DNA of 64,000 nt from Candidatus Sungiibacteriota bacterium (GCA_016180435.1 JACPBG010000001.1:216006-280005); one strand, 5' to 3'; shown: positions 3,650 through 52,440, counted from the first letter of the stretch. Numbers and translations are program-made. The notes: generated by a model from the letters alone, not told the origin.

Positions 3650-3650
3650 A

Positions 3651-3797: not shown

Positions 3798-3806
3798 TTT
3801 TATTTC

Positions 3807-7387: not shown

Positions 7388-7468
7388 ATGTCCTCCTTGT
7401 CAAAGGACGTATTTTCTATCCCCATGTAACCACTGTCTGTTTACACAGTCAAATGCGTGTATATAAAA

Positions 7469-7501
7469 TAAAAAGGCCAAGGCAAAACCTCGGCTTTTTT
7501 T
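7469..7501. terminator. Hairpin with flanking A/T runs (bidirectional terminator; serves minus-strand CoA ligase gene)
   Basis: aaaaa-ggccaaggcaaaacctcggc-ttttttt. Confidence 0.5.
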
Positions 7502-7502
7502 C

Positions 7503-9107
7503 TTATTTTTCGTCTGCCTTTTTCATTTGCAGATCGAGTGATAAATCTATCAGTTTGCGAAGTTCATGCTTCAAAACAGTTCCTTTGGCGGCTTTAGGCA
7601 ATTCATTCACAAATTGAACCCGGCGGATTGCGGAATAACCCGAAAGTTTTTCATGGCTCATCCTCATCACATCTTCCTCGGTCAAGGCCGCATCCGCGCG
7701 CACCACAAATGCATACGGAATTTCTCCTTTATCTTGGTCCGGACATCCTATAACAGCAATCTCGCTTATTCGATCTCCGAAATACCGCAACATCACATCC
7801 TCGATTTCCTTGGGCCATACAGCAAAACCGCTCACCTTCATCATATCATCTTGACGGTCAATAATCCGAAGATGACTTTCATCAAGCACCCCGATATCTC
7901 CGGTAAAAAGCCAGCCCTTGCGAATCCTTTCCTGTGTGGCCTTGGGATTCCGGAAATATCCTTTAAAAACATTAGGCCCTCGAATGATCACCTCGCCCCG
8001 TTTGCCGTCTTGCGTAATTCGTCTGCCGGATTTATCTACCAAACGCACCTCAACGTTTTCAATCGGCTCTCCTACGCTGTCATAACGGTATCCGGACTTA
8101 ACGTCGGCATTGTAGGTCGCAAAAGGAGTGCTCTCGGTTAGGCCGTATCCCATATAAATTTTCCGGCTGAATTTATCATGCCAAGCCCGGGCAGTTTCCG
8201 GAGCAAGCGGCGCTCCGGCGGAAAAAAAATAGCGCACCGAATTAAATGAATCCACATCATTCATACGCAATAATTTTTCATATCCCACCGGAACATGAAA
8301 AAACATGGAAACCCGATTGTCTTGAAGCGACTTGAGTATTTCCGGCGGATTGAACCGCGGGTGCAGTACCAGAGTTGCTCCGGCGTTGAAAGTCGCATTC
8401 ATAATGAAATTCTGACCAAAACAATGAAAAAGCGGCAAAAAACAAATAGCCACATCCTCGGAAGTCATGCCGGTGTGATGAACCGTGGCATTGATATTTG
8501 ACATCACGTTGCCGTGCGTCAACACCGCGCCCTTTCTTCGACCGGTGGTTCCGCTGGTAAGCAGTATGAGCGCAGGGTCTGACGGATCAAGGTCCTGCAA
8601 CGGAGCATAATCCGTGCAAACACCGATTTTTTCCACCTGATAAATCGGCAACACGCCGCCTAAAATAGACGCCTCGCCCCACAAATTTTCATCGGCAACA
8701 AGCACCCTGGGCTTGAGAAAATCAACGTATTCTTTAAGCTCATCGCCTTTCATAGCGGATGAAAGTAATACCGGAACCGCGCCAATCCGCCAAGCCGCAT
8801 AATTTACAACAGGGTACCAAACGTTATTGGTAAGAAAAACCCCGACTCTATCATTTTTCTTAACTCCCCACGATTTCAGTTCCCCGCTGAAAAGACATGC
8901 CAATTCGTGAAGTTCGGCATAGGAAATATGACAATATATCGGTATGCTTTCAGCGGATGTCGCGGGTTCAGTTACCGCAACTTTATTTCCGAAATAACGC
9001 TCGGCTTTCTCCAAAACCGAAAATATGTTCATGATTGCGCCTCCAAAAGAAATATTTTCAACGAACACTCGGATTATATCAATCACGAATTTGTTGTCAA
9101 ACCGCAA
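7503..9107 (-). CDS. AMP-dependent acyl-CoA synthetase/ligase (ANL superfamily; 4-coumarate/cinnamate-CoA-ligase-like)
   Basis: 534 aa; AMP-binding motif LTSGTTGRRKGAVLTHGN, YRTGD-like FTGDIG, C-terminal lysine region PKAAKGTVLKHEL. Confidence 0.85.
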   Translation of the reverse strand: MRFDNKFVIDIIRVFVENISFGGAIMNIFSVLEKAERYFGNKVAVTEPATSAESIPIYCHISYAELHELACLFSGELKSWGVKKNDRVGVFLTNNVWYPVVNYAAWRIGAVPVLLSSAMKGDELKEYVDFLKPRVLVADENLWGEASILGGVLPIYQVEKIGVCTDYAPLQDLDPSDPALILLTSGTTGRRKGAVLTHGNVMSNINATVHHTGMTSEDVAICFLPLFHCFGQNFIMNATFNAGATLVLHPRFNPPEILKSLQDNRVSMFFHVPVGYEKLLRMNDVDSFNSVRYFFSAGAPLAPETARAWHDKFSRKIYMGYGLTESTPFATYNADVKSGYRYDSVGEPIENVEVRLVDKSGRRITQDGKRGEVIIRGPNVFKGYFRNPKATQERIRKGWLFTGDIGVLDESHLRIIDRQDDMMKVSGFAVWPKEIEDVMLRYFGDRISEIAVIGCPDQDKGEIPYAFVVRADAALTEEDVMRMSHEKLSGYSAIRRVQFVNELPKAAKGTVLKHELRKLIDLSLDLQMKKADEK

Positions 9108-9146: not shown

Positions 9147-10316
9147 ATGGCTCGTTCAAAATCAAATACAGTGATCGTGGAAGCCAAACGCACTCCCATA
9201 GGCAAACGCAATGGCGTTTTCAAAAACCTCAAAGCGCATGAGCTTGGCGGCGCGCTTATAAAATCAGTGTTGAATGCCTGGGGACACCGGGTTGATGAAG
9301 TGATTATGGGAAATATGATCGGAGTAAGCTTTGATGCCGCACAAGGATTGAGACCGCGCCTGAATCCGGCAATGGAGGCATGCATCAAAGCCGGATATGG
9401 ATTTATTCATGGATGGACATGCGGAGATGCCTGCAGTTCGGCGTTAAAATCGGTCATAGTCGGAGACAGAAGTATTCGCTCGGGAGATTGTTCAAGTGTC
9501 CTGGCCGGAGGCATGGAATCCATGAGCGGACTTCCGAAAGAGTGGCTGGCTATGGTGCTAAAGGATCCTAACGATTTATCTCCTCTGCATCCTACCGATT
9601 ATTTCTCACATGGATTCACTACACTGGAAGCCGGAGAATGGTGCGCCAAGTATTGCGGAGTAAGCCGCCAAGATCTAGATAATTGGGCCATAAAAAGTTA
9701 CTTGCGAGCGCGCAAGGCCCAGACCGATGGAGTTTTTAATACGCAGATTGTGCCAATTAACGAAGTTGCTTTGGATGAAGAACCAACTCTGCCGATTACC
9801 GAAGACATGATACTCAAAGCCGCACCCAAATTGGGACCGGACGGAACCATAACGTATTATACCGCATCCAAAAATGCGGACGGGGCGTCGGTCGTGTGGC
9901 TAATGGATCCAACATTCGCAAAAAAACGCGGATTCCAACCGCTTGCCGAAATTGTAAGCCAAGCCCCAAGCCAAACCATACATCGCGATACAAGACACTT
10001 CACGGTTGAGCCTCTGCAGGCCATACACGCGGCCCTGCAAAAAGCCGATCTTTCACTGTCAGATGTAGATATTTTTGAAATAAATGCGCCATTCGCACCG
10101 GTAATAGTCCATGCAATCCGCCAACTCGGCATATCGGAGGAGTTGGTAAATATATATGGCGATTCAATCGCTTTCGGGCATCCGGTTGGAGCATCCGGCG
10201 CGATTTTGCTGGTACGCGCCATATACGCGCTTCTTGCCACCGGAGGACGTTATGCCGTAATTTGCCTGTGCCATGCGCTGGGCGGCGCAACTGCAATGGT
10301 TATCCGGCGAATGTAA
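9147..10316 (+). CDS. Thiolase-family protein (acetyl-CoA C-acyltransferase-like)
   Basis: 389 aa; N-terminal thiolase fold, C-terminal GHPVGASGAILLVRAIYAL and CLCHALGGATAMVI matching thiolase GHPxGASG and CxGGGxG regions. Confidence 0.7.
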   Translation: MARSKSNTVIVEAKRTPIGKRNGVFKNLKAHELGGALIKSVLNAWGHRVDEVIMGNMIGVSFDAAQGLRPRLNPAMEACIKAGYGFIHGWTCGDACSSALKSVIVGDRSIRSGDCSSVLAGGMESMSGLPKEWLAMVLKDPNDLSPLHPTDYFSHGFTTLEAGEWCAKYCGVSRQDLDNWAIKSYLRARKAQTDGVFNTQIVPINEVALDEEPTLPITEDMILKAAPKLGPDGTITYYTASKNADGASVVWLMDPTFAKKRGFQPLAEIVSQAPSQTIHRDTRHFTVEPLQAIHAALQKADLSLSDVDIFEINAPFAPVIVHAIRQLGISEELVNIYGDSIAFGHPVGASGAILLVRAIYALLATGGRYAVICLCHALGGATAMVIRRM

Positions 10317-10740: not shown

Positions 10741-10829
10741 GTTTGCTTCGCAAAAGATCTTAGAACTTAGCGTCTAGAACTTAGTAATTTTCTAAGTTCT
10801 AAGTTCTAAATTCTAAGTTCTCGTATTAA
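10741..10829. repeat. Heptamer array element E3: 2x AGAACTTAG then 4x CTAAGTTCT (inverted)
   Basis: tcttagaacttagcgtctagaacttagtaattttctaagttctaagttctaaattctaagttctcg upstream of minus-strand gene 10426-10740. Confidence 0.75.
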
Positions 10830-11701: not shown

Positions 11702-12748
11702 TCAAAGAGAAATTACTTCCTCCCACGGCAGGTCCGGCTTGCCAAAATGACCATAAGATGCGGTGCTTAAATAAATTGGCCGGCGCAAATTAAGACGCTC
11801 AATTATGGCTTGCGGCCGAAAATCGAATTTTTCGGAAACTAGTTTTCCTAAATCCTTACCGTCGCTGGTTTCGGCATGCACCATCAAGGGCTCGGCGCGG
11901 CCAATAGCATATGCAACCGAGACCATACAATCCTTGGCAAGTCCGTTTGCCACGATATTTTTAGCCGCATATCGCGCCATATAGGCGGCCGAGCGATCCA
12001 CTTTGGTAGGGTCCTTGCCGGAAAACGCGCCGCCGCCATGCGGAATAAGCCCGCCATACGTATCCACCATGATTTTTCTGCCGGTAAGTCCGGTGTCTGC
12101 CGTAAATCCGCCGATTACAAATTTTCCGGTAGGATTGACCAAGACCTCGATTCCCGATAAATCACCAGTAACCGGATGGATCAATTTGCGCAGCAGTATT
12201 TCTTTAATTTCCGGCTGGGAGATGCTGTCCGAGTGCTGACATGATATCAATACAGCGCTCAATTTCCCATCATGCATCGTTACCTGCGATTTGCCGTCAG
12301 GGCCAAGCCATGAACATTCAGAATCGTTTCTGCGCAAATCCTCAAGGCCTTTGGTAAATTTATGCGCCAGCGAAACAGCCCGCGGAAGAAATTCCGGGGT
12401 TTCGGCAGTAGCGTATCCATACATAATACCCTGATCCCCGGCGCCTCCGGTGTCCACTCCCTGCGCGATATCCGGGGACTGACGGATGATATTCGTAACA
12501 ACTTTCAAATTATCCGCATATCCGATGTCGCGGTATATTTTTTGCGCAATTTCTCCGGCCTCAATCTCCCCCCGGGAAGTTACTTCTCCTCCCACGACCA
12601 AAAGTCCGTGGGAGCCAAAACTCTCCACAGCCACGCGGGAATGCGTATCTTTTTTAAGATATTCGTCCAAAATCGCGTCCGAGATTTGGTCGCATATTTT
12701 ATCCGGATGTCCGGAGGTTACGCTTTCTACGGTGTATGTGGTACGCAT
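11702..12748 (-). CDS. metK: S-adenosylmethionine synthetase (methionine adenosyltransferase)
   Basis: 348 aa; N-terminal ESVTSGHPDKICDQISDAILD, GGGAFSGKDPTKVDRSAAYMARYAAKN signature. Confidence 0.9.
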   Translation of the reverse strand: MRTTYTVESVTSGHPDKICDQISDAILDEYLKKDTHSRVAVESFGSHGLLVVGGEVTSRGEIEAGEIAQKIYRDIGYADNLKVVTNIIRQSPDIAQGVDTGGAGDQGIMYGYATAETPEFLPRAVSLAHKFTKGLEDLRRNDSECSWLGPDGKSQVTMHDGKLSAVLISCQHSDSISQPEIKEILLRKLIHPVTGDLSGIEVLVNPTGKFVIGGFTADTGLTGRKIMVDTYGGLIPHGGGAFSGKDPTKVDRSAAYMARYAAKNIVANGLAKDCMVSVAYAIGRAEPLMVHAETSDGKDLGKLVSEKFDFRPQAIIERLNLRRPIYLSTASYGHFGKPDLPWEEVISL

Positions 12749-12759
12749 AAATGTAAATT

Positions 12760-12915
12760 AAAACTCACAAAGCACAGAAACCAAGACATAAACAAGCACT
12801 AAAATTCAAAATTCACCTAATTTCTAAGGCCTGAATTTTTAATTTCTTTATTTGGTATTTTATTAGAAATTAGACAATTAGGTAATTAGAAATTTATCTT
12901 AATGGGTTTTGTGCA
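12760..12915. repeat. Repeated ~150-bp leader/element E4 upstream of metK (homologous to 39476-39760 minus its inserted small element)
   Basis: acagaaacca..actaaaattcaaaattcacctaatttctaaggcctga..taatttctttatttggtattttattagaaattagacaattaggtaattagaaatt..gggttttgtgc shared almost verbatim with the region upstream of neuB. Confidence 0.75.
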
Positions 12916-12935
12916 TATCTCTGGTTTTGTACGTT

Positions 12936-12966
12936 TAAAATAAACCCTCTTCCGTAAAGAAGAGGC
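12936..12966 (-). terminator. Rho-independent terminator (minus strand)
   Basis: Minus-strand reading gcctcttctttacggaagaggg followed by tttatttt. Confidence 0.55.
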
Positions 12967-13150
12967 GAAAAAAGCTATCGCTCCCCTTACAGGGCTGGCA
13001 TTGGCACTATTCCGCTTTTAACGGAACTTTGCTGGCGGGTCATAGGGCCAGATCCCTCACCGCACTCTGGATAAAACATAAATTTTGATTATCTATATAA
13101 TACATGCAACTATACAAAAAACAAGAAAGTTTTCCACAAACATCCGACCA
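12966..13150 (-). ncRNA. Candidate small non-coding transcript (unclassified)
   Basis: ~180-nt GC-richer stretch between two minus-strand terminators, preceded by AT-rich promoter-like sequence at ~13085-13130, ending in the terminator at 12936-12966; contains several helices (gggccagatccc, ccgcttttaacgg); no match to SRP/6S/RNase P/tmRNA motifs that I could recognise. Confidence 0.2.
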
Positions 13151-16706: not shown

Positions 16707-19481
16707 CTAGATTTTGCCGTGGCAATGCTTATACTTCTTTGGGCGGCCGTCAGAATGGGCCGCTCCGCACGGGCAGGGGTCATTGCGACTTGGTTCTTTT
16801 TGGCCTTTTAATTTAATAGAAGCTCCCATTTTTCCCGAAGAAGATTCTTCGCCCGGTTTAAATTGACTTACCGCAATATCCGGCCGGCGCTCCTCAACCC
16901 GGCGGGGATTTTCTCCGGCCATAGATATGGCGCCGACTTTAAAAATGGTGTGAACTATTTCACTGCGAATCGCGGCCTGCAGCTGCCGAAAAAGCCGCAC
17001 GCCCTCATTTTTATATTCCACTAATGGATCGCGCTGTCCGTAGGCGCGCAGGCGTACCGAATCGCGCAAATGCTCCATTTGATCAAGCTGATCCATCCAT
17101 AAAACATCAATGGTGCGAAGCATCACGGCGCGCTCGGAAGAGCGCATCTGCTCATCTCCCACGGCCTTTTCATGCTCTTCATATTTTGACTCCAAAACAT
17201 CAAATATAAAAGTGCCTATCTTATTGCGCTTCTCATCGCCGTATAATTCCTCGCCCGCAATTTCACGGAGTTTATGATGCATATCATCGGAAATCGACGC
17301 AATACTTTTTACTCCCTCGAATATTTCTTCAAGATTCCAATCGTCAATCCGATCGGCTGATGCATGAAATTCCACTAATTTTGAAACTTCTTCCTTAATC
17401 ATATCAAAAATCCTTTCGCGTAAGGTAACTTTCTCGACTTCGCTCGAAGAATAATTATCTAAGTTACCATTTGGGATTTGGGATTTGGGATTTGGGATTT
17501 CCGAAAAGAGAATATCTTTTCGGAGGCGGTATATTGAGTCCCTCTGCCTATTCAGCACATCATCAAACTCCAGCACGTGCTTTCGCGCATCAAAATGAAA
17601 CCCCTCGATTTTTTCCTGCGCGGCTTCAATAGCGCGCGATACCATGCGGTTTTCAATTGGCTGATCTTCAGGGATACCGAGAGTTTCCATCATGCGCCTC
17701 ACCCTCTCTGCCCCGAATATCCGCATCAAATCGTCTTCCATAGATACGAAAAACTGCGACTCGCCCGAATCGCCTTGCCGTCCGGCGCGTCCGCGCAACT
17801 GATTATCGATCCGGCGCGCCTCATGCCGCTCGGTGCCGATCACGCATAACCCCCCCAACCCGCGGACAATATCAGCTTCTTTCTGATCCTGCGGATTTCC
17901 TCCAAGAATTATGTCAACGCCTCGTCCGGCCATGTTGGTTGCAATTGTAACAGCACCAGCTCTGCCGGCTTGCGCGATGATCAATGCCTCGCGCTCGTGA
18001 TTTTTGGCGTTTAATACCTCATGCGGCACGCCTTCAACCTCAAGCATTTTGACCAGGCGTTCATTTTTTTCGATGGACACGGTGCCAACAAGCACCGGCT
18101 GACCTCTGCCATATCTTTCTTTTACTTCGCGTACAACTGCCTGCATTTTCCCCCGCTCGGTGCGAAATACCAAATCAGGCAAATCGCGGCGCACCATGGG
18201 GCGATGCGTGGGAACGGATATCACGTCAAGGTTATAGACCTTATGAAATTCCTCGGCCGAGGTTTGCGCGGTTCCGGTCATGCCCCCGAGTTTTTTATAC
18301 ATGCGGAAATAATTTTGAAACGTAATAGTGGCAAGGGTCCGCGATTCCTGTTCAACCCGCACGCCTTCTTTGGCCTCCACCGCCTGATGCAATCCCTCCG
18401 ACCAACGGCGCCCGGGCATAAGGCGCCCGGTAAACTCATCCACAATTGTCACTTTGCCGTCCTTTACCACATAATCGCGATCACGCGTAAATAAGGCTTG
18501 CGCCCGCAAGGCCTGTTCCAGATGATGCACAAAACGAATTCCTTTTTCCTCATAAATATTTCCGATGCCAAGCATTTGCTCAACTTTATCAATACCCGCC
18601 TCGGTGATGGATACGGCGCGCAGTTTTTCATCCACATTGTAATCAATATTTTCTTTCAGGCGCGGTACGATTTTTGAAAATACGCGGTAAAGTTCGGCGG
18701 ACTCTGCATCCGGCGCGGAAATTATCAAAGGAGTTCGCGCCTCATCAATTAAAATGGAATCCACCTCGTCAACTATGGCGTAATGATGGTGTTTTTGCCG
18801 AAGCGATTCGGGCGCATATTCTAAATTATCGCGCAAATAATCAAAGCCGAATTCGTTGTTGGTGCCGTAAGTTATGTCCGCGGCATAGGCTTCATGCCGC
18901 GCACAAGGCCGGAAATGCGAAAGGCGCGGATCATCATGACGCTGGATGTCTTGAAATTCCGGATCATAAATTCCGGAAAATTCATGGGCGATAACTCCGG
19001 TTGATACGCCCAGCGCGTGATACACCGGCCCCATCCAGCCCGCGCCAACCCGCGACAAATAATCATTCGGAGTAACCAAATGCGCGCCCCTGCCTTCAAG
19101 CGAATTCAAATAAAGCGGCAGGGTGGCCACCAGGGTTTTTCCCTCGCCGGTTTTCATCTCGGCAATTTTTCCCTCATGAAGCACAATTCCACCGGCTAAC
19201 TGCACATCAAAATGCCGCTGATTAAGTTTTCTCTTGGCAGCTTCCCGAACCGCGGCAAACGCCTCAGGAAGAATTTCTAACAGGGATCCGATCCCTGTTA
19301 CAGGGATCGGATCCCTGTTTATTCCTAGACGCCGCTTAAATTCAACCGTAAGATTTCTAAGTTCTTCATCTGAGAATTTTTCAAAATCTTTCTCCAATTC
19401 ATTGATCTCATCAACAATCGGCTGGAGAGATTTTATATAGCGTTCATTGGCATCCCCAAAAATTTTTCCCAAGATTGACAT
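16707..19481 (-). CDS. secA: Protein translocase subunit SecA
   Basis: 924 aa; DEAD-like motor (MKTGEGKTLVATLP, DEVDSILIDEARTPLIIS), C-terminal zinc-binding CPCG...HCHG; carries two unusual in-frame insertions (17470-17499; palindrome near 19270-19320). Confidence 0.95.
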   Translation of the reverse strand: MSILGKIFGDANERYIKSLQPIVDEINELEKDFEKFSDEELRNLTVEFKRRLGINRDPIPVTGIGSLLEILPEAFAAVREAAKRKLNQRHFDVQLAGGIVLHEGKIAEMKTGEGKTLVATLPLYLNSLEGRGAHLVTPNDYLSRVGAGWMGPVYHALGVSTGVIAHEFSGIYDPEFQDIQRHDDPRLSHFRPCARHEAYAADITYGTNNEFGFDYLRDNLEYAPESLRQKHHHYAIVDEVDSILIDEARTPLIISAPDAESAELYRVFSKIVPRLKENIDYNVDEKLRAVSITEAGIDKVEQMLGIGNIYEEKGIRFVHHLEQALRAQALFTRDRDYVVKDGKVTIVDEFTGRLMPGRRWSEGLHQAVEAKEGVRVEQESRTLATITFQNYFRMYKKLGGMTGTAQTSAEEFHKVYNLDVISVPTHRPMVRRDLPDLVFRTERGKMQAVVREVKERYGRGQPVLVGTVSIEKNERLVKMLEVEGVPHEVLNAKNHEREALIIAQAGRAGAVTIATNMAGRGVDIILGGNPQDQKEADIVRGLGGLCVIGTERHEARRIDNQLRGRAGRQGDSGESQFFVSMEDDLMRIFGAERVRRMMETLGIPEDQPIENRMVSRAIEAAQEKIEGFHFDARKHVLEFDDVLNRQRDSIYRLRKDILFSEIPNPKSQIPNGNLDNYSSSEVEKVTLRERIFDMIKEEVSKLVEFHASADRIDDWNLEEIFEGVKSIASISDDMHHKLREIAGEELYGDEKRNKIGTFIFDVLESKYEEHEKAVGDEQMRSSERAVMLRTIDVLWMDQLDQMEHLRDSVRLRAYGQRDPLVEYKNEGVRLFRQLQAAIRSEIVHTIFKVGAISMAGENPRRVEERRPDIAVSQFKPGEESSSGKMGASIKLKGQKEPSRNDPCPCGAAHSDGRPKKYKHCHGKI
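17470..17499. repeat. In-frame simple-sequence repeat (TTGGGAT/GGGATTT)x4 inside secA
   Basis: ttgggatttgggatttgggatttgggattt encodes IPNPKSQIPNG in SecA. Confidence 0.85.
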
Positions 19482-24890: not shown

Positions 24891-26020
24891 CTACGGAATA
24901 ATAATATCTTTGAGCTGCTTCGGATATTTGGTTAAATTCCAACAGCCGGTTTTAGTGACTTGCACCAAATCCTCAGTACGAACGCCGAGTTTATTTCCAG
25001 GATCATACAATCCTGGTTCTACCGACGTCACCAGGCCATTTTTTAGGATATAGGATCCTTCATTAATCCGCGCCGGCGGCTCGTGGCATAAAAGTCCAAG
25101 CCCATGGCCGGTGCCGTGGATAAACCCTCGACCCTTAACAAGATCAGTTTTAAAACCCGCTTTCGCAAACAATTCCTCAATCGCAACATGAATATCTTTC
25201 CCATCCACTCCGGCGCGAATCATCCCAATGCCTTTTTCTTGACCGGCAAGTACTGCCTCATACATCTTTACAAAAAGCGTAGGCGGATCGCCTTTACAAA
25301 ACGTCCGCGTCATATCAGAAAAATAACCGGTTTTTCGCGAATAAGGATAGATATCGAATATGATTGAAGTATTAGCACGAAGCGGTCCTACACCCACATG
25401 ATGCGGAATCGCAGATTGGGCGCCAGAAGAAACAATTGTGTCATAAGATGCGCAGCCGCGACGGAAAAGCTCAAGCTCAATGAATGAACGCAATCCTTCG
25501 GATGTAAGCGTCTTACCTTTCTCCATGATGAAACCATTTTTTATCGAGGCGCGGCGAAGGCGCTTTTGCACCAAATCCAGCACATCCTCCATATGATTTT
25601 GTACTTCAGTAATATGGCTGATTTCTTTTTCGGTCTTTACAATACGATTTTCATACCACGGCAACTGGCCAATTCGTATCTTTATCCCGGATTTACGCAA
25701 ACGATCCACAACTTCAATCGGAGTAAACGGGTGAACTTCTAAAGCGGTTAGGCCGCGTTTTTCAAGCAAATATTTTACCCGACTTTCTTGAAATAGGACT
25801 CCGCGTTAAGAACTTGGCAATTTTTGGCCTCAAGCTTCGCACGCGTAAATTCCAAAGATCCGACAAGCAAGAACCTATCCCATCGTCCGTTTTCGCGCGC
25901 AAACTCTAGAAAAAAATGCGGATCCGGAAGCGGCATCCGAACCAGCCAAAAAAGATCCATATTAATGGTTTCGGCCATATAGGTTGCGCCGTATATGAGA
26001 CGTGCTCGTTTTATAGACAT
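24891..26020 (-). pseudogene. Xaa-Pro aminopeptidase (M24B) interrupted by a +/-1 frameshift near 25769-25777
   Basis: Creatinase-like N-terminal domain in ORF 25775-26020 and the rest plus M24 catalytic domain (HGTGHGLGL) in ORF 24891-25769 lie in different frames 5 nt apart; could be a genuine frameshift or a sequencing error. Confidence 0.6.
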
Positions 26021-26183: not shown

Positions 26184-26284
26184 ACCCCGTTAGAGATTTG
26201 GTTATCCACATTACACATGCGCGTCAAAAAACACCTAAAACGTATTTCATCAGTACTACAAGAATCTTACATCTCTAACGGGGT
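26184..26284. mobile_element. Small TIR-bounded element (MITE-like), copy a: ACCCCGTTAGAGAT ... ATCTCTAACGGGGT
   Basis: 14-bp perfect terminal inverted repeats flanking ~73 bp non-coding DNA; same TIR family at 37057, 39537, 52234, 52257. Confidence 0.65.
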
Positions 26285-28132: not shown

Positions 28133-29513
28133 CCGCATCAAAATCACGCTTCTTATTTTAGGGGACTTTCTAACACTCTGGGGAACCCTAATTTTGATTT
28201 TGTTTCTCCGCTATCACGCCGATCAAGATTTCGATCTACAAAAAATGTTTCAAATCCATGTAGCGCCTTTTACTCTCGTATTTGCCGCCTGGCTCGTACT
28301 TTTCGGCGCTTTTGGATTATACGACATACGGACGCTCGGCCTCGTTACCATACGGGATGCGCGGAGGCTTTTATTAAGAATGACGGAAGCAATGGCGTTT
28401 AATACGGCCTCGGCCATTATCATTTTTTATTTGATTCCGGCATTTGAAATCGAACCGCGCCGCAATTTATTCTTGGTGGTTTTGGGATCATTATTCTTCA
28501 TCTTTACATGGCGCTGCCTTATTAATCTTTTCATAACCAAAGCCAAGCCCTTACCGATCGCATTTTTTGGCATTAACAAAGAAGTGGTGGAGCTTGCGGA
28601 TTGGCTCCTGAAAAATCCGCAGCTCGGAAGAAAGCCGGCCGCATTCATATCCGCAAACAGCGAGGACACCCTGCGTCCCCTGCCCCTTCCCGTGTTCACC
28701 CACACCCAAGACATGCAGCATCTAGCGCGCGATTTGGCGCTGGATGCCATAATCATTACCCGCGAGATCAAAGAGAATAAAACACTGACGCGCGCTCTTT
28801 TTCAAATGATACCGCTGGGCGTAGGCATTACGGAATTTACGGCATTCCACGAAATGCTCACCGGAAAAATCCCTTTATCACTCATAGGGGAAGTGTGGTT
28901 TTTGGAAAATCTGGCTGGCAGCCAAAAAGACATATATGAATTTTTCAAACGCGTGCTTGATATCGGACTTGCCATACTTCTGGGCATTCCATTTTTAGTC
29001 CTTTTACCTTTAACTGCAATTTTTATCAAAATCAATTCGCCGGGTAGAATATTCTTCCGGCAAAAACGGGTGGGTAAAAATGGAAAGGAGTTTTTTCTGA
29101 TAAAATTCCGTTCTATGGTGCAGACTGCCGAAAAACTTGGCGGATTTAAAAATGAATCCGAAGACCGCCGCCATACCGGCGTAGGAAAATTTTTAAGAAA
29201 AATATATATTGACGAATTGCCACAAATAATAAATGTTTTGCGCGGTGAAATGTCATTTATCGGACCGCGGCCGGAGCGGCCCGAATATGTCCGCGAACTA
29301 AAAGAAAAAATTCCGTTTTACGAAATGCGACTTTTAGTTCCGCCCGGCATCACCGGCTGGGCGCAAATTAATATGGAGAATGACGCATCCGTGGAGGATG
29401 CGCCGGAAAAAATGCAGTATGATCTTTATTACATCAAAAATCGTTCATTCCTGCTGGATATTCTAGTGGCGCTCCGCACAATTTTTATCATTCTCCGCCG
29501 CCCTGGAAGATAG
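28122..29513 (+). CDS. Polyprenyl-phosphate sugar phosphotransferase (WbaP/PssY-like initiating transferase)
   Basis: 463 aa; N-terminal TM helices, C-terminal Bac_transf domain (KFRSM, DELPQIINVLRGEMSFIGPRPERP, PGITGWAQIN). Confidence 0.85.
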   Translation: MATNRIKITLLILGDFLTLWGTLILILFLRYHADQDFDLQKMFQIHVAPFTLVFAAWLVLFGAFGLYDIRTLGLVTIRDARRLLLRMTEAMAFNTASAIIIFYLIPAFEIEPRRNLFLVVLGSLFFIFTWRCLINLFITKAKPLPIAFFGINKEVVELADWLLKNPQLGRKPAAFISANSEDTLRPLPLPVFTHTQDMQHLARDLALDAIIITREIKENKTLTRALFQMIPLGVGITEFTAFHEMLTGKIPLSLIGEVWFLENLAGSQKDIYEFFKRVLDIGLAILLGIPFLVLLPLTAIFIKINSPGRIFFRQKRVGKNGKEFFLIKFRSMVQTAEKLGGFKNESEDRRHTGVGKFLRKIYIDELPQIINVLRGEMSFIGPRPERPEYVRELKEKIPFYEMRLLVPPGITGWAQINMENDASVEDAPEKMQYDLYYIKNRSFLLDILVALRTIFIILRRPGR

Positions 29514-29576: not shown

Positions 29577-29981
29577 ATGGCTTTTAGTATGCAGCGCCTT
29601 GTCCCGGCAAATGAAACTAAAAAGGGGAAGCGCACATGGAATTGGAACATGCCGGACGGAAAACAAATAACGATTTATCAGAGATATCGGGACGAGGAAT
29701 TCGGAAATCACTTCCATAAAGGAGGGGACCCTTCAAAAAATCCGGAAAGGTTTCTCCTTCTTAACGGGATAGTTTATTTTTGGCTCGAAGATAAAAACGG
29801 CCACAGATATACTATGGTACTAGACGCAACCGATGGACCGGTGGAAATCATGATACGACCGTATATTCTCCACGGCGCCCGGGCGCTGGCAGATTGTTGC
29901 TTTATCGAATACCGGCAGAGCAAATTTGATCCGGCACATACAGATACATATCCGGAAGAAATCTTTCGGGAAACACATTAA
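29577..29981 (+). CDS. Cupin-fold protein, WxcM/FdtA-like (sugar ketoisomerase-like)
   Basis: 134 aa; GNHFHKGG metal-binding-like motif, similar to cupins at 44349-44810 and 57212-57604. Confidence 0.5.
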   Translation: MAFSMQRLVPANETKKGKRTWNWNMPDGKQITIYQRYRDEEFGNHFHKGGDPSKNPERFLLLNGIVYFWLEDKNGHRYTMVLDATDGPVEIMIRPYILHGARALADCCFIEYRQSKFDPAHTDTYPEEIFRETH

Positions 29982-30106: not shown

Positions 30107-30502
30107 TTACAATGGTCTACAAAAAACGGCAAAATTTGCCCTTCCTGCGGCAGAAAAAATGCAAAAAAGAACGGATATTCACGCGGCAAGCAGCAATATA
30201 AATGCTTAAAGTGCAATAAGAAGTTTTCCGGTCAAAGACGACGCGGTATTTTACAAAGTATTCTTTGGCAGCAATACGCCCATGATTATTGCACAGTAGA
30301 TCAACTGACCCGCAAGTATCACCGAAGCGAAAAGTGGATCCGATCTCAACTGGATGCATACCGATTCCCGGAACATAAGATGGCGCCGCGTCCGGTCGTG
30401 ATCGTGGCTGACGCCATGTTCTTTGGAAGACACTGGGGAGTGGTAGTAATGCGCGCTCCGCACAATTTTCATCATTCTCCGCCGCCCTGGAAGATAGGAT
30501 AA
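30107..30502 (+). pseudogene. Zinc-ribbon transposase remnant (IS1/IS1595-type N-terminus; truncated, no ATG start)
   Basis: Frame encodes KNGKICPSCGRKNAKKNGYSRGKQQYKCLKCNKKFS (CxxC-N17-CxxC ribbon) then ...PRPVVIVADAMFFGRHWGVVV resembling the start of a DDE domain; ORF ends inside the duplicated 45-bp segment. Confidence 0.45.
30453..30497. repeat. 45-bp direct duplicate (44/45 identical) of the 3' end of the sugar-transferase gene (copy 1 at 29469-29513)
   Basis: gcgctccgcacaattttcatcattctccgccgccctggaagatag vs gcgctccgcacaatttttatcattctccgccgccctggaagatag; encodes ALRTIFIILRRPGR* in both places. Confidence 0.9.
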
Positions 30503-30548
30503 AAACAGGTTATTATCACAAATTGTCATACGGAATATCTGTATTTTT

Positions 30549-30586
30549 TACTCTGATATGTATACGATCGAAATAATATCAGAGTA
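30549..30586. promoter_or_regulatory. 38-bp palindromic site TACTCTGATAT-N16-ATATCAGAGTA (copy A, downstream of PaaX-like gene)
   Basis: tactctgatatgtatacgatcgaaataatatcagagta; second copy at 31284-31321. Confidence 0.6.
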
Positions 30587-30638
30587 AATCTGAATATCCG
30601 CCGCAGAACCATACAGAAAAATAAGATAGATAATACAT

Positions 30639-31232
30639 TTAAATTTCGTGAATGGTCCCGCGCTTATTTACCGAAAAAATATGAACGTGCGGTAGTAACT
30701 TTCTTTCCCGAATTGCATGAATAAAATCCTCGTCTATGGCATTGCCGCGGCTAACCCAAACGCTTTTTTGCAACAATTTAAATTCCATTTCTCGAAGACA
30801 AGCACGAACCCAATCACGAGCCCTGCGCTCTTTTTCGGGGATGTCAAATGCAACAATTATCAAACCGCTCCCCGTCGGAGGATCAAGTGAAACGGAAAAT
30901 TTTGAAAAATTATTCTGGGAGCGATCACGGATATACCTTAATCGTTCAATGCCACGTTTAGTAATATTCCAAAATGACGACTTTCCTTTTTCTTTTTTTA
31001 CCACCAATCCCTCATGTTGCAAATAATTGAGGGTGTTGTAAAATTGACGATGTTTCCTATAGATATCGGCCCAATCAGTTTTGAACTGGCGCGGACCTTG
31101 AGATAAGAATCTCCGATAATCGCGACGTGCCTCAGATTTAGACATAAAAAAGGATTTAAATAAATCAACGGTCACTTCCGCCTCGAATTGAAGTAATTCT
31201 AGAATTTTTTCGACAAACGTTTCGCGCTTCAT
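30639..31232 (-). CDS. PaaX-family-like transcriptional regulator: N-terminal winged HTH + C-terminal Cas2-like domain
   Basis: 197 aa; C-terminal LIIVAFDIPEKERRARDWVRACLREMEFKLLQKSVWV parallels Cas2 N-terminal beta-alpha-beta (lVlVsYDIsdd.rRrkvaklL..yGqRVQySVF) and the PaaX middle domain. Confidence 0.55.
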   Translation of the reverse strand: MKRETFVEKILELLQFEAEVTVDLFKSFFMSKSEARRDYRRFLSQGPRQFKTDWADIYRKHRQFYNTLNYLQHEGLVVKKEKGKSSFWNITKRGIERLRYIRDRSQNNFSKFSVSLDPPTGSGLIIVAFDIPEKERRARDWVRACLREMEFKLLQKSVWVSRGNAIDEDFIHAIRERKLLPHVHIFSVNKRGTIHEI

Positions 31233-31283
31233 TTAAATATATTCAGTGGCCAAAAACCGCGTTCCAGCCCGCAAAAATTTATA

Positions 31284-31321
31284 TACTCTGATATTTATAC
31301 GATCGTATTTATATCAGAGTA
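31284..31321. promoter_or_regulatory. 38-bp near-perfect palindrome (copy B) ~50 bp upstream of PaaX-like gene; putative operator
   Basis: tactctgatatttatacgatcgtatttatatcagagta (34/38 self-complementary). Confidence 0.6.
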
Positions 31322-31382
31322 AAAAATATTATTACTGGTCTGGTACTACTTGGGGGGAAGATAAAAAAACAATTATTAATAC

Positions 31383-32294
31383 TCAAAAAATATGCAACAG
31401 AGTTTTCAACTCATTTATTCCGTCAACAAAAGATATTTTTGGTTCCCAGCCGAGAAGTTCTTTGGCTTTCTTGATATCGGCCAAAGTTTCTAATACTTCG
31501 CCCTGGCGCGATTCGATAAATTTCCACGGCCCGCCGATCATCTCGGCGATTTCAAGAACACTGTAGTTCGTTGCCGTACCGATATTTACTATTTCTCCTT
31601 TGCCTACTTGACCGGATTTCATGGCAAGCAAATTGGCGCGCGCCACATCCGTAACGTGCGTAAAATCCCTACGCTGGGTCCCATCCGGCACCACACTCAT
31701 TGGCGTACTATTCGCACGTTGCTCTAAAAAAATTCCAATTACAGTTGCATATGGTCCGTCGGAAGCAGTGGTTTGCCGAGGCCCATAAACATTAAAATAA
31801 CGCAAAGAAACTGTTTCTAGGCCATAAAAACGCGCGGCCATTTCGCAATATTGCTCCCCCACTCTTTTCTGAATCGCGTAAGGAATAATGGGCTCCGGAC
31901 GCATGTCCTCCGTAAGAGGCATCACATCTTTTCTGCCGTACGCGGAGGAAGACGCGGAATACACCACTCTTTTGACTCCCGCATCGCGCGCCGCCAAAAG
32001 AACATTCAACGTTCCAGTAATATTGATATCATTGGTAAGCCGCGGCTCTTTCAGGGAATATTGCATTCGGGGTTGCGCCGCAGTATGGAAAATTCCCGCT
32101 GCACCCTTGAAAACCGGCGCAAGTTTGTCAAAATCGCGGATATCCATCTCATGAAGGATGGCCTTAGGATTTAGCCGCTCGCGCTTGCCGGTCAAAAAAT
32201 TATCAATAACATGCACTTCGTCGCCGCGCGCAATCAGCATATCCACAATATGGGAGCCGATAAAACCAGCCCCGCCGGTTACAATAAATTTCAT
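31383..32294 (-). CDS. NAD-dependent nucleotide-sugar epimerase/dehydratase (extended SDR)
   Basis: 303 aa; TGGAGFIGSH Rossmann motif, YxxxK (YAIQK). Confidence 0.85.
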   Translation of the reverse strand: MKFIVTGGAGFIGSHIVDMLIARGDEVHVIDNFLTGKRERLNPKAILHEMDIRDFDKLAPVFKGAAGIFHTAAQPRMQYSLKEPRLTNDINITGTLNVLLAARDAGVKRVVYSASSSAYGRKDVMPLTEDMRPEPIIPYAIQKRVGEQYCEMAARFYGLETVSLRYFNVYGPRQTTASDGPYATVIGIFLEQRANSTPMSVVPDGTQRRDFTHVTDVARANLLAMKSGQVGKGEIVNIGTATNYSVLEIAEMIGGPWKFIESRQGEVLETLADIKKAKELLGWEPKISFVDGINELKTLLHIF

Positions 32295-32326
32295 TAGGAA
32301 TTAGGAATTAGGAATTAGGAATTAGT
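32294..32326. repeat. Tandem heptamer array (AATTAGG)x4.5 abutting the epimerase start codon
   Basis: attaggaattaggaattaggaattaggaattag; on the coding strand (CTAATTC)n runs directly into ATG with no Shine-Dalgarno. Confidence 0.85.
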
Positions 32327-37146: not shown

Positions 37147-38424
37147 TTAATAAAACCTTTTCTGGATTGAAGGATTGACCCGCGCCAGAATTTCGGCGAT
37201 ACGCGCGCCCGCCTTGCCATCCCCAAACATGGCACTTGACGGATACCGCCCATGCCGCAACTGTTTTTCGATTGCCTCTTTTATTTTTTTTTCTTCCGGC
37301 AAAACTTCAATGACATTTGCTCCACACTCTCGGCCCGTTTGCCTACTGCCGACCAGCACAGATGGCGTTCCGAAAAACGCTCCCTCGCGCAAAAAACTGG
37401 AAGAATTTCCTATGGCCGCGGAGGCATGCGCCAAAACCCGGTTAAAATCCTCCGGACTAAAATTTTTATAAAATGCGCGGTCCGGACGGCTGTTACGGAC
37501 GCGATACTCGCGAATGGCGGAAGATATTCCGTCTGATCCGGCATCCAGATTTGACACCACAAACATGGCCGGCATCTTGATTTTATCTATCGCGGCGCAT
37601 AGTGCCCGGGCATATTCGTAATTCATATTATATTCGGTGGTAACCGGATGATACAACACGAGTAAAAAGGGCTTATGCAAATCAAAATTGTCCGATCCTC
37701 CCCTTCCGTATCGCCTGAAAAAATCATTATCCAGGCCAAGATCTATACTCTTGATAAAATCAATTCCGGAAAAACCCGGCATAAAAACAAAATCCGGATT
37801 TTCTCCCATGCGTATCAGGCGCTGGCGGCTTTTTTCGGTCACGGGAAAATGCATGTGGGCAAGCTTGGTAATCGCATGACGCACGCTCTCGTCAATGGTT
37901 CCCGAAACGTCTCCGCCTTCCACATGGGCAATCGGAATATTCAAAAATGCCGCGGCCATCGCAATAGGCAAACTTTCAAATCGATCAGCGTAAATCAATA
38001 CGACATCCGGCTTTAATTTCTCAAAAAGCTTTGGAATTCCTAAAAGCCCAAGTCCGGCGCTCTTTACCATAACGCGCGTATTCCCTCCTTCCAAAAATAG
38101 CGGAAGTCGCGCGTGTATGGGAAATCCCGCGCCCATAAGCAATTTGGGCAGATATTCCAATTTTTCAACTTCACCTCTTTTTCCTAAAATTTTTGTGGTG
38201 CGGGCCTTTATATACCAAGAAAAAGCTTTCAAAAATGAAACCGGCTCGCCATGAAATAAATACCAAAACAAGTGGTCAAAATAAAAATTGGTTACGGCGA
38301 TAACCTGCAATTCCAACTGCGGATGTTTCTGAATCGCCTCCATAACCGGTTTAACTCTGCCATAAATCGCGCGGTCATTCACCACCACGCAAATTTTTCT
38401 TTTTTTCATTTGATGTGTTTCCAT
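37147..38424 (-). CDS. neuC: UDP-N-acetylglucosamine 2-epimerase (hydrolysing), NeuC-like
   Basis: 425 aa; Epimerase_2 family; HVEGG motif (IAHVEGGDVSGTIDE). Confidence 0.75.
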   Translation of the reverse strand: METHQMKKRKICVVVNDRAIYGRVKPVMEAIQKHPQLELQVIAVTNFYFDHLFWYLFHGEPVSFLKAFSWYIKARTTKILGKRGEVEKLEYLPKLLMGAGFPIHARLPLFLEGGNTRVMVKSAGLGLLGIPKLFEKLKPDVVLIYADRFESLPIAMAAAFLNIPIAHVEGGDVSGTIDESVRHAITKLAHMHFPVTEKSRQRLIRMGENPDFVFMPGFSGIDFIKSIDLGLDNDFFRRYGRGGSDNFDLHKPFLLVLYHPVTTEYNMNYEYARALCAAIDKIKMPAMFVVSNLDAGSDGISSAIREYRVRNSRPDRAFYKNFSPEDFNRVLAHASAAIGNSSSFLREGAFFGTPSVLVGSRQTGRECGANVIEVLPEEKKIKEAIEKQLRHGRYPSSAMFGDGKAGARIAEILARVNPSIQKRFY

Positions 38425-39452
38425 TTTAACTGCATGTCGCGCGGAACATCTGCTTTCGCCCGTTTTCCCAAAATTTTAGGGAAATGCACTGCTTTGATCT
38501 CACCGGTCCCGGGACGTTTAACCCAGATATTTTTTTTAGTTAACAACTCGCCCTTTTTGATATTCTGTATAGAAACAACGCAGGCATACGCAAAATCAAT
38601 TGTCGGCTGTTCTTCTTTCAAAATTTTTTTTACTCCCCCGCGCGCTTCCCATATAGCCCGGGATCCCTTTATCAAATCCTTGAGCTCCACCGGGTTGATT
38701 GAAATCGGCACATCCGGTCCAGGCCACTTTTTATCCGAAGTAAAATGCTTCTCCAGGATTGATGCGCCAAGCGCGGTTGCACCGAAAGACGTATAATTCC
38801 CAAGCGAATGATCGGAAAGTCCGATAACCGCATCCGGAAACGCACGCGAAAGCTCGAGCATTGCTCCCAATCTGACCTTTTCATACGGCGTCGGATACAT
38901 GGAGGTCACGTGCAAAAGCGCAAATGGAATATGTTTTTTACGCAAAATTGCGACTGCGGGCTTAATTGATGAAATATCGTTCATGCCGGTGCTTAAAATA
39001 ACAGGTTTCCCGAAGGACGCGATATGCTCAATCAAAGGATAATTATTGCACTCTCCGGATCCGATCTTATATGCCCTGACGCCCATTTTTTCAAGGCGAT
39101 CCGCGGCTGCGCGGGAAAATGGCGTGCAAAGATAGATCATACCCAGACGCTCCGTATAATGCTTTAATTCACGTTCCTTTTTTTCCGAAAACGCGCAGCG
39201 CTCCATAATCTCATAGATCGATACTTTGGCATTCCCCGGAATGGTTTTTTTTGCCGCAGGCGCCATTTCATCCTCCACTACATGCGACTGAAATTTTACG
39301 CACTCGGCCCCGGATTTTTTGGCATCACGGATCATCCGCTTGGCTTTGGCAATACTACCCTCATGATTGATCCCGATTTCGGCAACCACCAAAGGCGGGA
39401 AGTCACGTCCAATCTTCCGATTACCAATCTTAATGAAGGGGTTCTTTTTCAT
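38406..39452 (-). CDS. neuB: N-acetylneuraminate (nonulosonic acid) synthase NeuB
   Basis: 348 aa; NeuB TIM-barrel (VVAEIGINHEGS...KFQ) plus C-terminal SAF domain. Confidence 0.85.
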   Translation of the reverse strand: MKKNPFIKIGNRKIGRDFPPLVVAEIGINHEGSIAKAKRMIRDAKKSGAECVKFQSHVVEDEMAPAAKKTIPGNAKVSIYEIMERCAFSEKKERELKHYTERLGMIYLCTPFSRAAADRLEKMGVRAYKIGSGECNNYPLIEHIASFGKPVILSTGMNDISSIKPAVAILRKKHIPFALLHVTSMYPTPYEKVRLGAMLELSRAFPDAVIGLSDHSLGNYTSFGATALGASILEKHFTSDKKWPGPDVPISINPVELKDLIKGSRAIWEARGGVKKILKEEQPTIDFAYACVVSIQNIKKGELLTKKNIWVKRPGTGEIKAVHFPKILGKRAKADVPRDMQLKWKHIK

Positions 39453-39475: not shown

Positions 39476-39760
39476 CTAAAACTCACAAAACACAGAAACC
39501 AGAACTAAAATTCAAAATTCACCTAATCTCTAATTTACCCCGTTAGAAATAAACAAATATAGTAGCATCTGCAACTCGTTTTTATCGGTAAAAATAGATA
39601 ATTTCCGCACTAAAAACATCTTCTGTTTCTTTCTAACGGGGTGAACCTAATAAAATTTCTAAGGCCTAAGTTCTTAATTTCTTTATTGGACATTTTATTA
39701 GAAATTAGACAATTAGGTAATTAGAAATTGAGGCCGCTATTTGGGTTTTGTGCGTTTATT
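39476..39760. repeat. Copy E5 of the ~150-bp leader element (see 12760-12915) upstream of neuB, interrupted by a small TIR element
   Basis: acagaaaccagaactaaaattcaaaattcacctaat...[insert 39537-39642]...tttctaaggcctaagttcttaatttctttattggacattttattagaaattagacaattaggtaattagaaatt...gggttttgtgcg. Confidence 0.75.
39537..39642. mobile_element. Small TIR-bounded element copy c: ACCCCGTTAGAAA ... TTTCTAACGGGGT
   Basis: 13-bp perfect terminal inverted repeats; inserted within the repeated leader element relative to the uninterrupted copy upstream of metK. Confidence 0.7.
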
Positions 39761-40523
39761 TTTCTTCCTCCAAAATTTTTTTTAATTGCCGCTCGGATAT
39801 TTCCCAATCCTCCGGCGTATCAATATCAACGCTATATTTTACATCCATAACAAATCCGCGCACATCATTCCCATAAAAACTCTGGTCTTCTTCAAAAAGA
39901 AGCGCTGTCTTAAAAATATAAAATGCGCTGTTACGAATATATGTCTTAGGAAGATCCTGCCGGCGCCGGATAACGTTTTTTACCGAGCCACCGACAAATA
40001 ATTCCGCCCTACTCCCTTCTTGCAAATTAAATTGCCAGTGTGGGCTGTATCCGCCCGGAACTTCAACCAAACTAATAACCGAATCAGCATTACTTTGCAA
40101 AAACAAATTAAAACCATCTTTTATGCATGCTGGCGGAACGCCGGGAGTGGTTGCTTGCGTCAAAATAACAACCTTCGGTTCCCAATCCTCATTTTCTTTA
40201 AGAACCTTAACCGCATGTTGTAAGACCGGCAAAGTCGGACTCGTATCTTGCGCGAATTCCGCAGGACGCATAAACGGAACTTCGGCTCCAAATTTCTTGG
40301 CAATATCGGCAATCTCTTTATCGTCGGTTGAAACAACAACCCTATCGCACACCCCGCTTTCTTTCAATGCCTCAATAGCCCAAGCAATTAGTGGTTTCCC
40401 TAAAAAGGGTTTTATATTTTTACGCGGAATGGATTTTGACCCGCCCCGCGCCGGAATTATGCCTAAAATTTTCTTTTTTGAATCTGCCATATTCGCATTA
40501 ATGGGACTGTTGCCGAATACCAT
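39756..40523 (-). CDS. neuA: N-acylneuraminate cytidylyltransferase (CMP-sialic acid synthetase) NeuA
   Basis: 255 aa; IPARGGSKSIPRKNIKPFLGKPLIAWAIE signature of CMP-NeuAc/CMP-KDO synthetase family. Confidence 0.85.
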   Translation of the reverse strand: MVFGNSPINANMADSKKKILGIIPARGGSKSIPRKNIKPFLGKPLIAWAIEALKESGVCDRVVVSTDDKEIADIAKKFGAEVPFMRPAEFAQDTSPTLPVLQHAVKVLKENEDWEPKVVILTQATTPGVPPACIKDGFNLFLQSNADSVISLVEVPGGYSPHWQFNLQEGSRAELFVGGSVKNVIRRRQDLPKTYIRNSAFYIFKTALLFEEDQSFYGNDVRGFVMDVKYSVDIDTPEDWEISERQLKKILEEEK

Positions 40524-52233: not shown

Positions 52234-52440
52234 ACCCCGTTAGAAACGGGCGCTTCGCCCCGTTAGAGATTTATAGAGTATTGAACCCATTTAAGAAAAA
52301 AATCATATTTTCACTTATATAGTCGGGGTCTTGTCGCGCCATATCTCTAACGGGGTGAGCGACCTGCCAATGAAAGCATTATACTCCCATCAGCTATTTC
52401 TATCTCTACCGCGACAGAGTCGGTGGCGTTCTAACGGGGT
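52234..52440. mobile_element. Nested pair of small TIR elements (outer ACCCCGTTAGAAA...GTTCTAACGGGGT; inner CCCCGTTAGAGAT...ATCTCTAACGGGG at 52257-52354)
   Basis: Inner element sits 10 bp inside the left end of the outer element; inner TIR variant (GTTAGAGAT) is identical to copy a at 26184. Confidence 0.65.

Follow-up and report, generated by a model that had tools for sequence, protein, structure and literature searches.

Correia/NEMIS elements of Neisseria and ERIC/IRU elements of enterobacteria are non-coding sequences of 100-200 bp with inverted ends that form long hairpins. They are dispersed between genes, co-transcribed with their neighbours, and present or absent at orthologous sites. 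REP/BIME/REPIN sequences, which are mobilised by RAYT, are also palindromic and intergenic; they are mosaic, variably truncated, free of target duplications, and often oriented with transcription. Here we describe a repeat with likenesses to both groups in a stretch of 64,000 nucleotides from a Candidatus Sungiibacteriota bacterium (GCA_016180435.1 JACPBG010000001.1:216006-280005; hereafter the window, with positions counted from its first letter). The host is a CPR bacterium whose genome is probably around 1 Mb, judging from the complete 923-kb genome of a relative.

A first-pass annotation of the window had proposed that metK and neuB share a long upstream leader, which might be a mobile promoter or leader module, a shared regulatory RNA, or a repeat that seeds rearrangements. 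Our analysis indicates that the shared segment is probably a non-coding, dispersed, palindromic element of the MITE type, which has spread in gene spacers and has no function specific to metK or neuB.

Results

Two copies of one repeat lie upstream of metK and neuB

An element shared by two loci is expected to align beyond the similarity of AT-rich background. Positions 12760-12936 and 39478-39757, both on the minus strand, were found to be collinear copies of one element, with aligned blocks of 76 nt (92% identity), 45 nt (89%) and 34 nt (85%) returned by a repeat finder. The 35-mer TTATTAGAAATTAGACAATTAGGTAATTAGAAATT is exact in both copies, has no third site in the window, and is contained in 0 of 100 dinucleotide shuffles. 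The first-pass annotation had described collinear, near-identical segments upstream of the two genes, and pairwise alignment bears this out: identity exceeds AT-rich background, and the shared segment is real, far above that background. Its limits required adjustment, since the metK copy had been ended at 12915 and extends to 12936 by ruler reading (the profile match covers 12761-12935), and the neuB span of 39476-39760 is corrected to 39478-39757. Both genes lie on the minus strand, a further correction to the earlier description. The two copies are direct repeats 26.7 kb apart that flank secA, murB and other core genes, and a deletion between them would probably be lethal because of the core genes that it would remove.

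The large repeat is an imperfect palindrome

A complete copy of this large repeat is ~195 nt long and forms a long imperfect palindrome, in which CTAAT/ATTAG arrays of 8-nt period surround an asymmetric loop (AAAATGTCCAATAAAGAAATTAAGAATTTAGGCCTTAGAA) and are themselves bounded by inverted ends. In the direction of the genes, the outer inverted end reads TAAAAC[G/T]CACAAAAC ... GTTTTGTGAGTTTTA, the left arm consists of four CTAAT units with an 8-nt period, and the right arm consists of ATTAG units. As expected for a MITE, the element has terminal inverted repeats, in which AAAACTCACAAAAC... pairs with ...GTTTTGTGAGTTTT, and it is small (177-195 nt) and non-coding. Its sole open frame comprises 16 codons in the loop. 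This was considered as a conserved micro-ORF (MSNKEIKNLGLRNFIR) and rejected, since the metK copy has ATA in place of the ATG start codon and the frame is lost in distant members.

The repeat is predicted to fold end to end into a single hairpin. The window stretches that contain the two copies reach -40.3 and -74.8 kcal/mol (z -3.9 and -4.0), and full-length copies reach -47 to -57 kcal/mol. Copies of the repeat are mosaic; by alignment, the copy before gyrA is devoid of outer ends and the L022 copy is devoid of the 3' end. The loop-proximal motif CTAATAAAATG-C-AAT is kept across distant Parcubacteria lineages, and this conservation exceeds that of neutral junk and counts against a purely selfish reading.

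Known RNA families, regulatory sites and mobility genes were also sought. When searched against Rfam, both repeat regions gave no family match even at E<=10 and nothing above 22 bits; the SAM riboswitch is the only Rfam family that passes its gathering score in the window. Scans of the two copies for promoter-like and terminator-like sites identified none that both contain. A Pfam scan of 62 window ORFs gave no transposase or recombinase domain and no RAYT (Y1 transposase) gene.

The metK copy follows a SAM-I riboswitch

The metK gene (11702-12748, minus strand; Pfam S-adenosylmethionine synthetase) belongs to a unit whose SAM-I riboswitch aptamer (12972-13077, minus strand) scores 53.2 bits with RF00162, above the gathering score of 44.4. 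The terminator scan placed a terminator-like stem after the aptamer, at 12946-12965 on the same strand and followed by GTTTATTTT, which is taken to be the expression-platform terminator of the riboswitch. Upstream of the riboswitch lies a promoter-like site, TGGAAA-16-TATAGT (13109-13136, minus strand), which is a consensus match only; the region of this site is also kept in the relative L032. The 177-nt metK copy of the large repeat (profile E=5e-49) starts straight after the terminator T-run, at 12936, and stops 11 nt before the metK ATG at 12748. The copy thus lies between the riboswitch terminator and the ATG, in the 5' UTR that the riboswitch controls rather than at the promoter.

This copy carries changes of its own. 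Its 5' end contains a tandem duplication of GCACAAAACC, and 22 nt of its right arm (alignment columns 128-149), present in every other family member, are missing. AATT on both sides of the gap suggests that these 22 nt may have been lost by slippage.

An insertion is expected to have empty counterparts at orthologous sites. The syntenic locus of a relative (L032, L034; MetK 84% identical) has the promoter region, a SAM-I riboswitch (48.7 bits) and the terminator, with 12 nt between the terminator stem and the ATG. The site is likewise empty in L036, from a complete 923-kb genome (MetK 79% identical), where the ATG lies 10 nt after the terminator T-run. In L036 (Sungiibacteriota CP066690.1), the metK SAM-I riboswitch itself, at ~2110-2480, appears to carry a large internal insertion and scores below the Rfam gathering score.

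In relatives, the purine-rich arm of the terminator is 12-16 nt from the ATG, which raised the possibility that the insertion deprived metK of a Shine-Dalgarno sequence. This was rejected, as a Shine-Dalgarno-like motif is found in only 9 of 55 window genes, and such a motif is probably not the way translation starts here. A TATAAT-like box stands 7-15 nt ahead of the ATG in many window genes, a sign that short-leader or leaderless mRNAs may be widespread among them.

The neuB copy fills the spacer between neuA and neuB

The neuB gene (38406-39452, minus strand) encodes a NeuB-family sialic-acid-type synthase according to Pfam and is separated by 303 nt from a neuA-like cytidylyltransferase gene (39756-40523). 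The neuB copy of the large repeat, which measures 280 nt including a 104-bp insert, fills this spacer (profile matches at 39644-39757, E=1.6e-31, and 39479-39543, E=6.6e-10). Genes for a UDP-GlcNAc 2-epimerase, a flippase and a Wzy-like protein lie downstream in the operon, which places the spacer mid-operon. The last two A's of the neuA stop codon TAA (39758-39756) come from the first bases of the repeat, and 12 nt of the outer right arm are missing from this copy.

The relatives L051 and L052 (NeuB 82% and 86% identical) have an empty site, with neuA and neuB overlapping by 4 and 11 nt, and the window NeuA is four residues shorter than that of L052. The large repeat therefore differs in presence at orthologous sites of both loci, being absent from metK in L032, L034 and L036 and from the neuA-neuB junction in L051 and L052. 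Because these orthologous sites are empty, both window copies are lineage-specific insertions, and the empty sites are the strongest argument against a conserved leader. Target-site flanks are irregular: GAAAA is found on both sides of the neuB copy and ATTT perhaps at the metK copy, and none were found at L016, L021a and L021c.

At the point where the neuB copy is split, the two window copies differ in length by about 126-129 bp, more than the 104 bp of the insert, because the metK copy is without the 22 nt of the right arm. The first-pass annotation had recognized the insert as a small element with inverted ends, which holds, and had given it 106 bp (39537-39642), which becomes 104 bp (39538-39641). 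What it read as a partial duplication of acctaat is no target duplication; the sequence represents two successive ATTAG/CTAAT units of the array. The pair of window copies had also been offered as a clean before-and-after picture of an insertion. This cannot be retained, since the metK copy's own 22-nt deletion falls exactly over the insertion point, and the metK copy is consequently not the state before the split. That state is best represented by the intact copies in L016, L021 and L022.

The large repeat is dispersed in Parcubacteria

A mobile element is expected to occur at further, unrelated loci. Copies were sought with an exact 21-mer from the arm in a genome collection and with a 26-nt degenerate loop pattern in metagenome contigs. 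The 21-mer was found at 12 loci (seven in MAGs of Parcubacteria or other CPR, four in Bacteroidota MAGs, and one labelled only 'bacterium'), and the loop pattern matched seven metagenome loci. The closest copies, ~90% identical to those of the window, are in Parcubacteria GW2011_GWA2_45_30 (L004) and in the JGI contigs L016, L018, L020, L021 and L022, and they show the full-length form of ~195 nt. A family profile built from five copies matches full-length copies over positions 1-196 with E about 1e-65. These close copies sit before gyrA, gatA, a pilin-like gene and two other genes.

Two distant members were detected within the window. The first (3650-3800, plus strand; profile 3664-3810, E=5e-4) has CTAAT/ATTAG arms of 9-nt period around a loop and lies between dnaB and recR. 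The second (5150-5297, plus strand; profile 5163-5298, E=9e-4) lies between two minus-strand genes and is antisense to both. Both are built of 9-nt units and are weak profile matches (E about 1e-3). The dispersal of the family thus amounts to two close and two distant copies in the window and at least five further independent loci in relatives; of the host genome, the 64-kb window and about 7 kb beside it were available to this count.

Orientation relative to the neighbouring genes was compared among loci. In the close subfamily, the repeat runs in the direction of the flanking genes at all seven independent loci (two-sided sign test, p=0.016), and 0-45 nt separate its end from a start codon. 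This hints that selection or function depends on orientation, something that a purely selfish model would not lead one to expect; one orientation may be better tolerated or mildly useful at the RNA level, for which this is a hint and not proof. Distant family members also occur in the other orientation (5150-5297, L011 and L012).

Repeats of this type are expected to interfere with assembly, and short-read assemblies from many samples do break inside the exact 35-mer. In L004, a MAG from 2015, positions 930-1051 and 6327-6448 are half-copies, and the same loci are full-length in the JGI contig L021 from another sample (7393-7588 and 1882-2077). Such half-copies are either true deletion variants or the product of assemblies that collapsed over the palindrome, and they suggest that copies of the large repeat also cause mis-assemblies. 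Assemblies share stop points (L023-L031, L043/L044 and L001-L003) inside the 35-mer, at 39558, which is 9 nt inside the small element described below, and at 52250, 8 nt before the nested copy of that element; such common stops suggest population heterogeneity or loss of coverage at hairpins.

The 21-mer of CTAATT-type 8-nt units also occurs in the Bacteroidota MAGs L007, L008, L009 and L013 (Bacteroidia, Chitinophagaceae). In L007 and L008 at least, it lies within periodic AT-rich arrays just upstream of a start codon, and the loop and ends of the Parcubacteria repeat are missing there. The Bacteroidota occurrences are either convergent or part of a wider phenomenon. Viral contigs contained no match to either the large or the small element; two 17-mer matches in coding sequence are attributed to chance.

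A second element family with conserved ends and unrelated interiors

The insert in the neuB copy belongs to a separate family. Five copies of 98-107 bp were identified, with the consensus end CCCCGTTAGA[A/G]A. The first (39538-39641, 104 bp) splits the right arm of the neuB copy and has perfect 12-bp inverted ends, CCCCGTTAGAAA/TTTCTAACGGGG. The second (26185-26283, 99 bp) is intergenic, is flanked by TCAA/TCAA, and has an interior unrelated to those of the other copies. The third, with 107 bp of its own sequence and flanks TAAA/TAAA, occupies 52235-52439 in a divergent intergenic region and is split by the fourth (52258-52355, 98 bp), which is nested within it and starts 11 nt after its left end. 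The fifth, 101 nt long (CCCCGTTAGAGA...TCTCTAACGGGG), lies in frame inside ligA of L016 at 10168-10268 (also in L020; protein P0121). The 12-bp ends are perfect in four of the five copies, and one outer end has a single mismatch.

The ligA copy adds 105 nt, equal to 101 + 4, and 35 residues (PCPVREL...RISNG) between GFKT and (V/M)ELA in the adenylation domain. These residues are absent from the four closest homologues, which include the LigA of the window genome (P0122, 692 versus 727 aa); the LigA protein cluster has 17 member sequences. That the small elements insert as a unit is proven by the interrupted host repeat, the nested pair and the in-frame copy in ligA. Perfect 4-bp direct repeats accompany two of the five copies (TCAA and TAAA), and the other three have no clear repeat. 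With inverted ends, small size, several copies and evidence of insertion, the small CCCCGTTAGA element has features expected of a MITE.

A MITE family is also expected to share its interior. The interiors of the small elements (74-83 nt) gave 10 of 10 pairwise scores within the shuffled range, and their G+C content varies from 0.30 to 0.54; the shared part is confined to 12-15 nt at each end. This lack of a shared interior does not fit a normal MITE family or how such families usually arise. Capture of the interiors from elsewhere was considered and rejected, as they matched nothing in the rest of the window or in about 50 other loci. Position 11 of the end, which is A or G, agrees between both ends of the same element in five of five cases.

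Variation between samples was examined as well. A polymorphism of the small elements in other samples was not supported, as all spanning contigs agree with the window. Assemblies that read into or through the elements all agree with the window orientation, with the qualification that assemblies collapse minority orientations. Contigs of the neuB locus break 9 nt inside the small element and not at its inverted end, which is not what inversion predicts. The L028 contig ends exactly at a small-element boundary, an observation that is suggestive only. A Bacteroidetes origin, with a Bacteroidetes-type promoter (TAnnTTTG) inside the small element, was dropped because the host belongs to Candidatus Sungbacteria.

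Other hairpins and sequence features of the window

Hairpins of related architecture with other units were also recorded. A hairpin with a 7-nt-unit array (GAACTTAGAA.../...CTAAGTTCTAAG; 10755-10822, minus strand) has the architecture of the large repeat and fills most of a gene spacer. In L035, a 7-nt-unit hairpin at 1-80 lies directly upstream of metK (MetK 86% identical), and its end, GTGCTTTTGTG, appears to supply the GTG start. At 32295-32325, four and a half CTAATTC units of 7-nt period abut the ATG of an epimerase gene (31383-32294) as a half-array with no opposing arm. TTAGAA/TTCTAA is common to the small-element ends and all periodic array hairpins.

Palindromes of other kinds were found in and around coding sequence. 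Within secA (16707-19481, minus strand), positions 19274-19320 contain two tandem perfect palindromes, AACAGGGATC(C/G)GATCCCTGTT, in frame. These encode ~9 extra residues (PIPVTGIGS) relative to solved SecA structures, and one of their ends resembles a small-element end (TTTCTAACAGGG). Similar 48-nt palindromic hairpins (ACTCTGATAT...ATATCAGAGT) at 30542-30589 and 31281-31328 flank a gene with a PaaX-type Cas2-like domain (30639-31232).

Two further features concern coding regions. At 25777, the window is missing 22 nt (GAACGCAAGTGGTCGCCTGTTA) that are present in Logan contigs of the same population; the loss shifts the frame and splits an M24 peptidase gene into 24891-25769 and 25775-26020, so that the window has either a pseudogene variant or a fault of assembly here. 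A 45-nt direct repeat (98%) at 29469-29513 and 30453-30497 represents the 3' end of a sugar-transferase gene duplicated 984 bp downstream. The DNA between these repeats carries an ORF (29577-29981) with no Pfam match, and the arrangement resembles an insertion event in which the end of the sugar-transferase gene became duplicated.

Discussion

For the large repeat, a dispersed, palindromic MITE-like element would account for the observations as follows. The repeat would have spread into the very short spacers that separate genes in Candidatus Sungbacteria and its Parcubacteria relatives. One insertion lies between the SAM-riboswitch terminator and the metK start codon, and a second at the neuA-neuB junction, where the genes overlap in relatives; the neuB copy was later struck by a member of the other, unrelated family, that of the ~100-bp elements whose inverted ends measure 12 bp. 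In transcribed regions, the large repeat would be carried passively in mRNA as a long AU-rich hairpin, which at metK would form part of the 5' UTR under riboswitch control. If the hairpin influenced how the mRNA is processed, how stable it is or how it is translated, that would be a by-product. Against this account stand the want of a consistent target-site duplication and, among the 62 ORFs scanned, of a transposase or autonomous partner.

A selfish origin followed by a role as a spacer at the RNA level is an unlikely alternative. According to this reading, the AU-rich hairpin and its U-run would uncouple neighbouring genes, whether as a site of processing, by stabilising the RNA or by terminating transcription in part. 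Similar RNA-level roles are established for REP/BIME, ERIC and Correia elements. Such a role would explain why the seven close copies share one orientation just upstream of start codons, but distant members occur in both orientations and seven loci are a small sample. In the three full-length relatives, folding favours the sense strand by 3.6 to 8.3 kcal/mol and gives it more G-U pairs, whereas in the two window copies the antisense strand folds equally well or better. The repeat ends in ...GUGAGUUUU, a stem and then a U-run; however, the stem base beside the U-run is GC-poor, and metK could not be expressed behind an efficient terminator placed after its riboswitch.

A mobile promoter, in which an outward TTGTGA in the 3' inverted end would serve as a -35 box and a resident -10 box would complete a promoter for the downstream gene, is very unlikely. 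The neuB locus does offer TTGTGA-18-TATATT (39488-39459, minus strand), ending 7 nt before the ATG, with the TATATT within 16 nt that are absent from relatives, and L016 has TTGTGA-18-TTTAAT. The frequent TATAAT-like boxes and few Shine-Dalgarno motifs of window genes also agree with promoters placed so close to start codons. However, the match is 9/12, and such sites are not more numerous than in shuffles (three found versus 1.9 expected). The start codons of metK and L021c are 11 and 9 nt from the repeat, leaving no room for a -10 box, and at metK a promoter inside the repeat would bypass the riboswitch. A hybrid promoter at neuB is thus possible as a weak match and cannot apply at metK. Of the mobile module suggested by the first-pass annotation, insertion at both loci is upheld by the other copies and the empty orthologous sites; the promoter is not, as no promoter-like site is kept between the copies.

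We give almost no credence to co-regulation of metK and neuB by a common cis-acting leader or small RNA, as the first-pass annotation had envisaged. In its favour are the matching placement and direction of the repeat before the two genes and its significant predicted structure. Against it, close relatives lack the repeat at their metK and neuB orthologues (empty sites that already contradict this reading), and the repeat occurs before gyrA, gatA and other unrelated genes, matches no Rfam family, and has suffered separate deletions in each copy as well as an insertion within the arms of one.

Reading the large repeat as a MITE-like element removes a false annotation lead, namely that metK and neuB are co-regulated through a common leader. 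It also shows that even very small, gene-dense CPR genomes harbour at least two families of miniature insertions that are active or were so recently. Such insertions are found in costly-looking places: a riboswitch-controlled 5' UTR, an overlapping-gene junction of a sialic-acid-type operon, each other, and the DNA ligase frame of a relative. In practice, both the large and the small elements break short-read assemblies.

The small element, with conserved ends, an unrelated interior and a constant length, is the one part that merits a specialist's time. Its members could represent a class in which 12-15 nt per end are specified and a fixed-length cargo of 74-83 nt of arbitrary sequence is carried or generated at each event. 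As speculation, the TTAGAA/TTCTAA core that the ends share with the periodic array hairpins may be the putative site of one CPR protein that shapes intergenic DNA. We consider the joint reading, in which the small CCCCGTTAGA elements are a new insertion class and a single CPR protein acts at the TTAGAA/TTCTAA core, distinctly improbable. The ligA copy is perhaps tolerated in frame in an essential gene, or removed from the RNA.

Comparison with described systems places the two elements differently. TIGR arrays consist of 36-nt units with UG/CCA boxes and two spacers, beside a Tas gene with a Nop domain (PMC12045711). A TIGR guide array was rejected here, as the periodic units are 7-9 nt with three variable bases, the motifs are different, and the window encodes no Nop-domain protein.

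Integron attC sites and invertons resemble the small element in having short conserved inverted ends and a variable interior of fairly constant length. The order in attC is ...AAC...GTT... (R'' RYYYAAC, R' GTTRRRY), whereas the small element has the reverse, GTTAGA...TCTAAC. An integron attC was rejected on this reversed core-site order, together with the absence of an integrase domain from the window and of a cassette array (copies are 7-13 kb apart). An inverton also appears not to fit: its segment should pre-exist at the locus, yet the whole unit is absent from intact host repeats and from the relatives' LigA. Rickettsia palindromic elements (RPE) are closer in character, being ~100 bp long, with inverted ends, and located between genes as well as in frame in an essential gene. 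However, RPE copies share internal sequence and small-element interiors do not, and the likeness is one of features.

For the large repeat, the likeness to Correia and ERIC elements is similarly one of features; it differs in having no regular target duplication, whereas Correia elements duplicate TA. To our knowledge, arms of CTAAT/ATTAG with a 7-9-nt period have not been described for Correia/NEMIS or ERIC/IRU. REP units are 20-40 nt long and GC-rich, in contrast to the ~195-nt, AT-rich large repeat. A limited literature search on MITEs and palindromic repeats in Parcubacteria, Patescibacteria and CPR found nothing relevant. The large repeat and the small element thus appear to be two new, undescribed MITE-like families of a well-known kind of selfish DNA.
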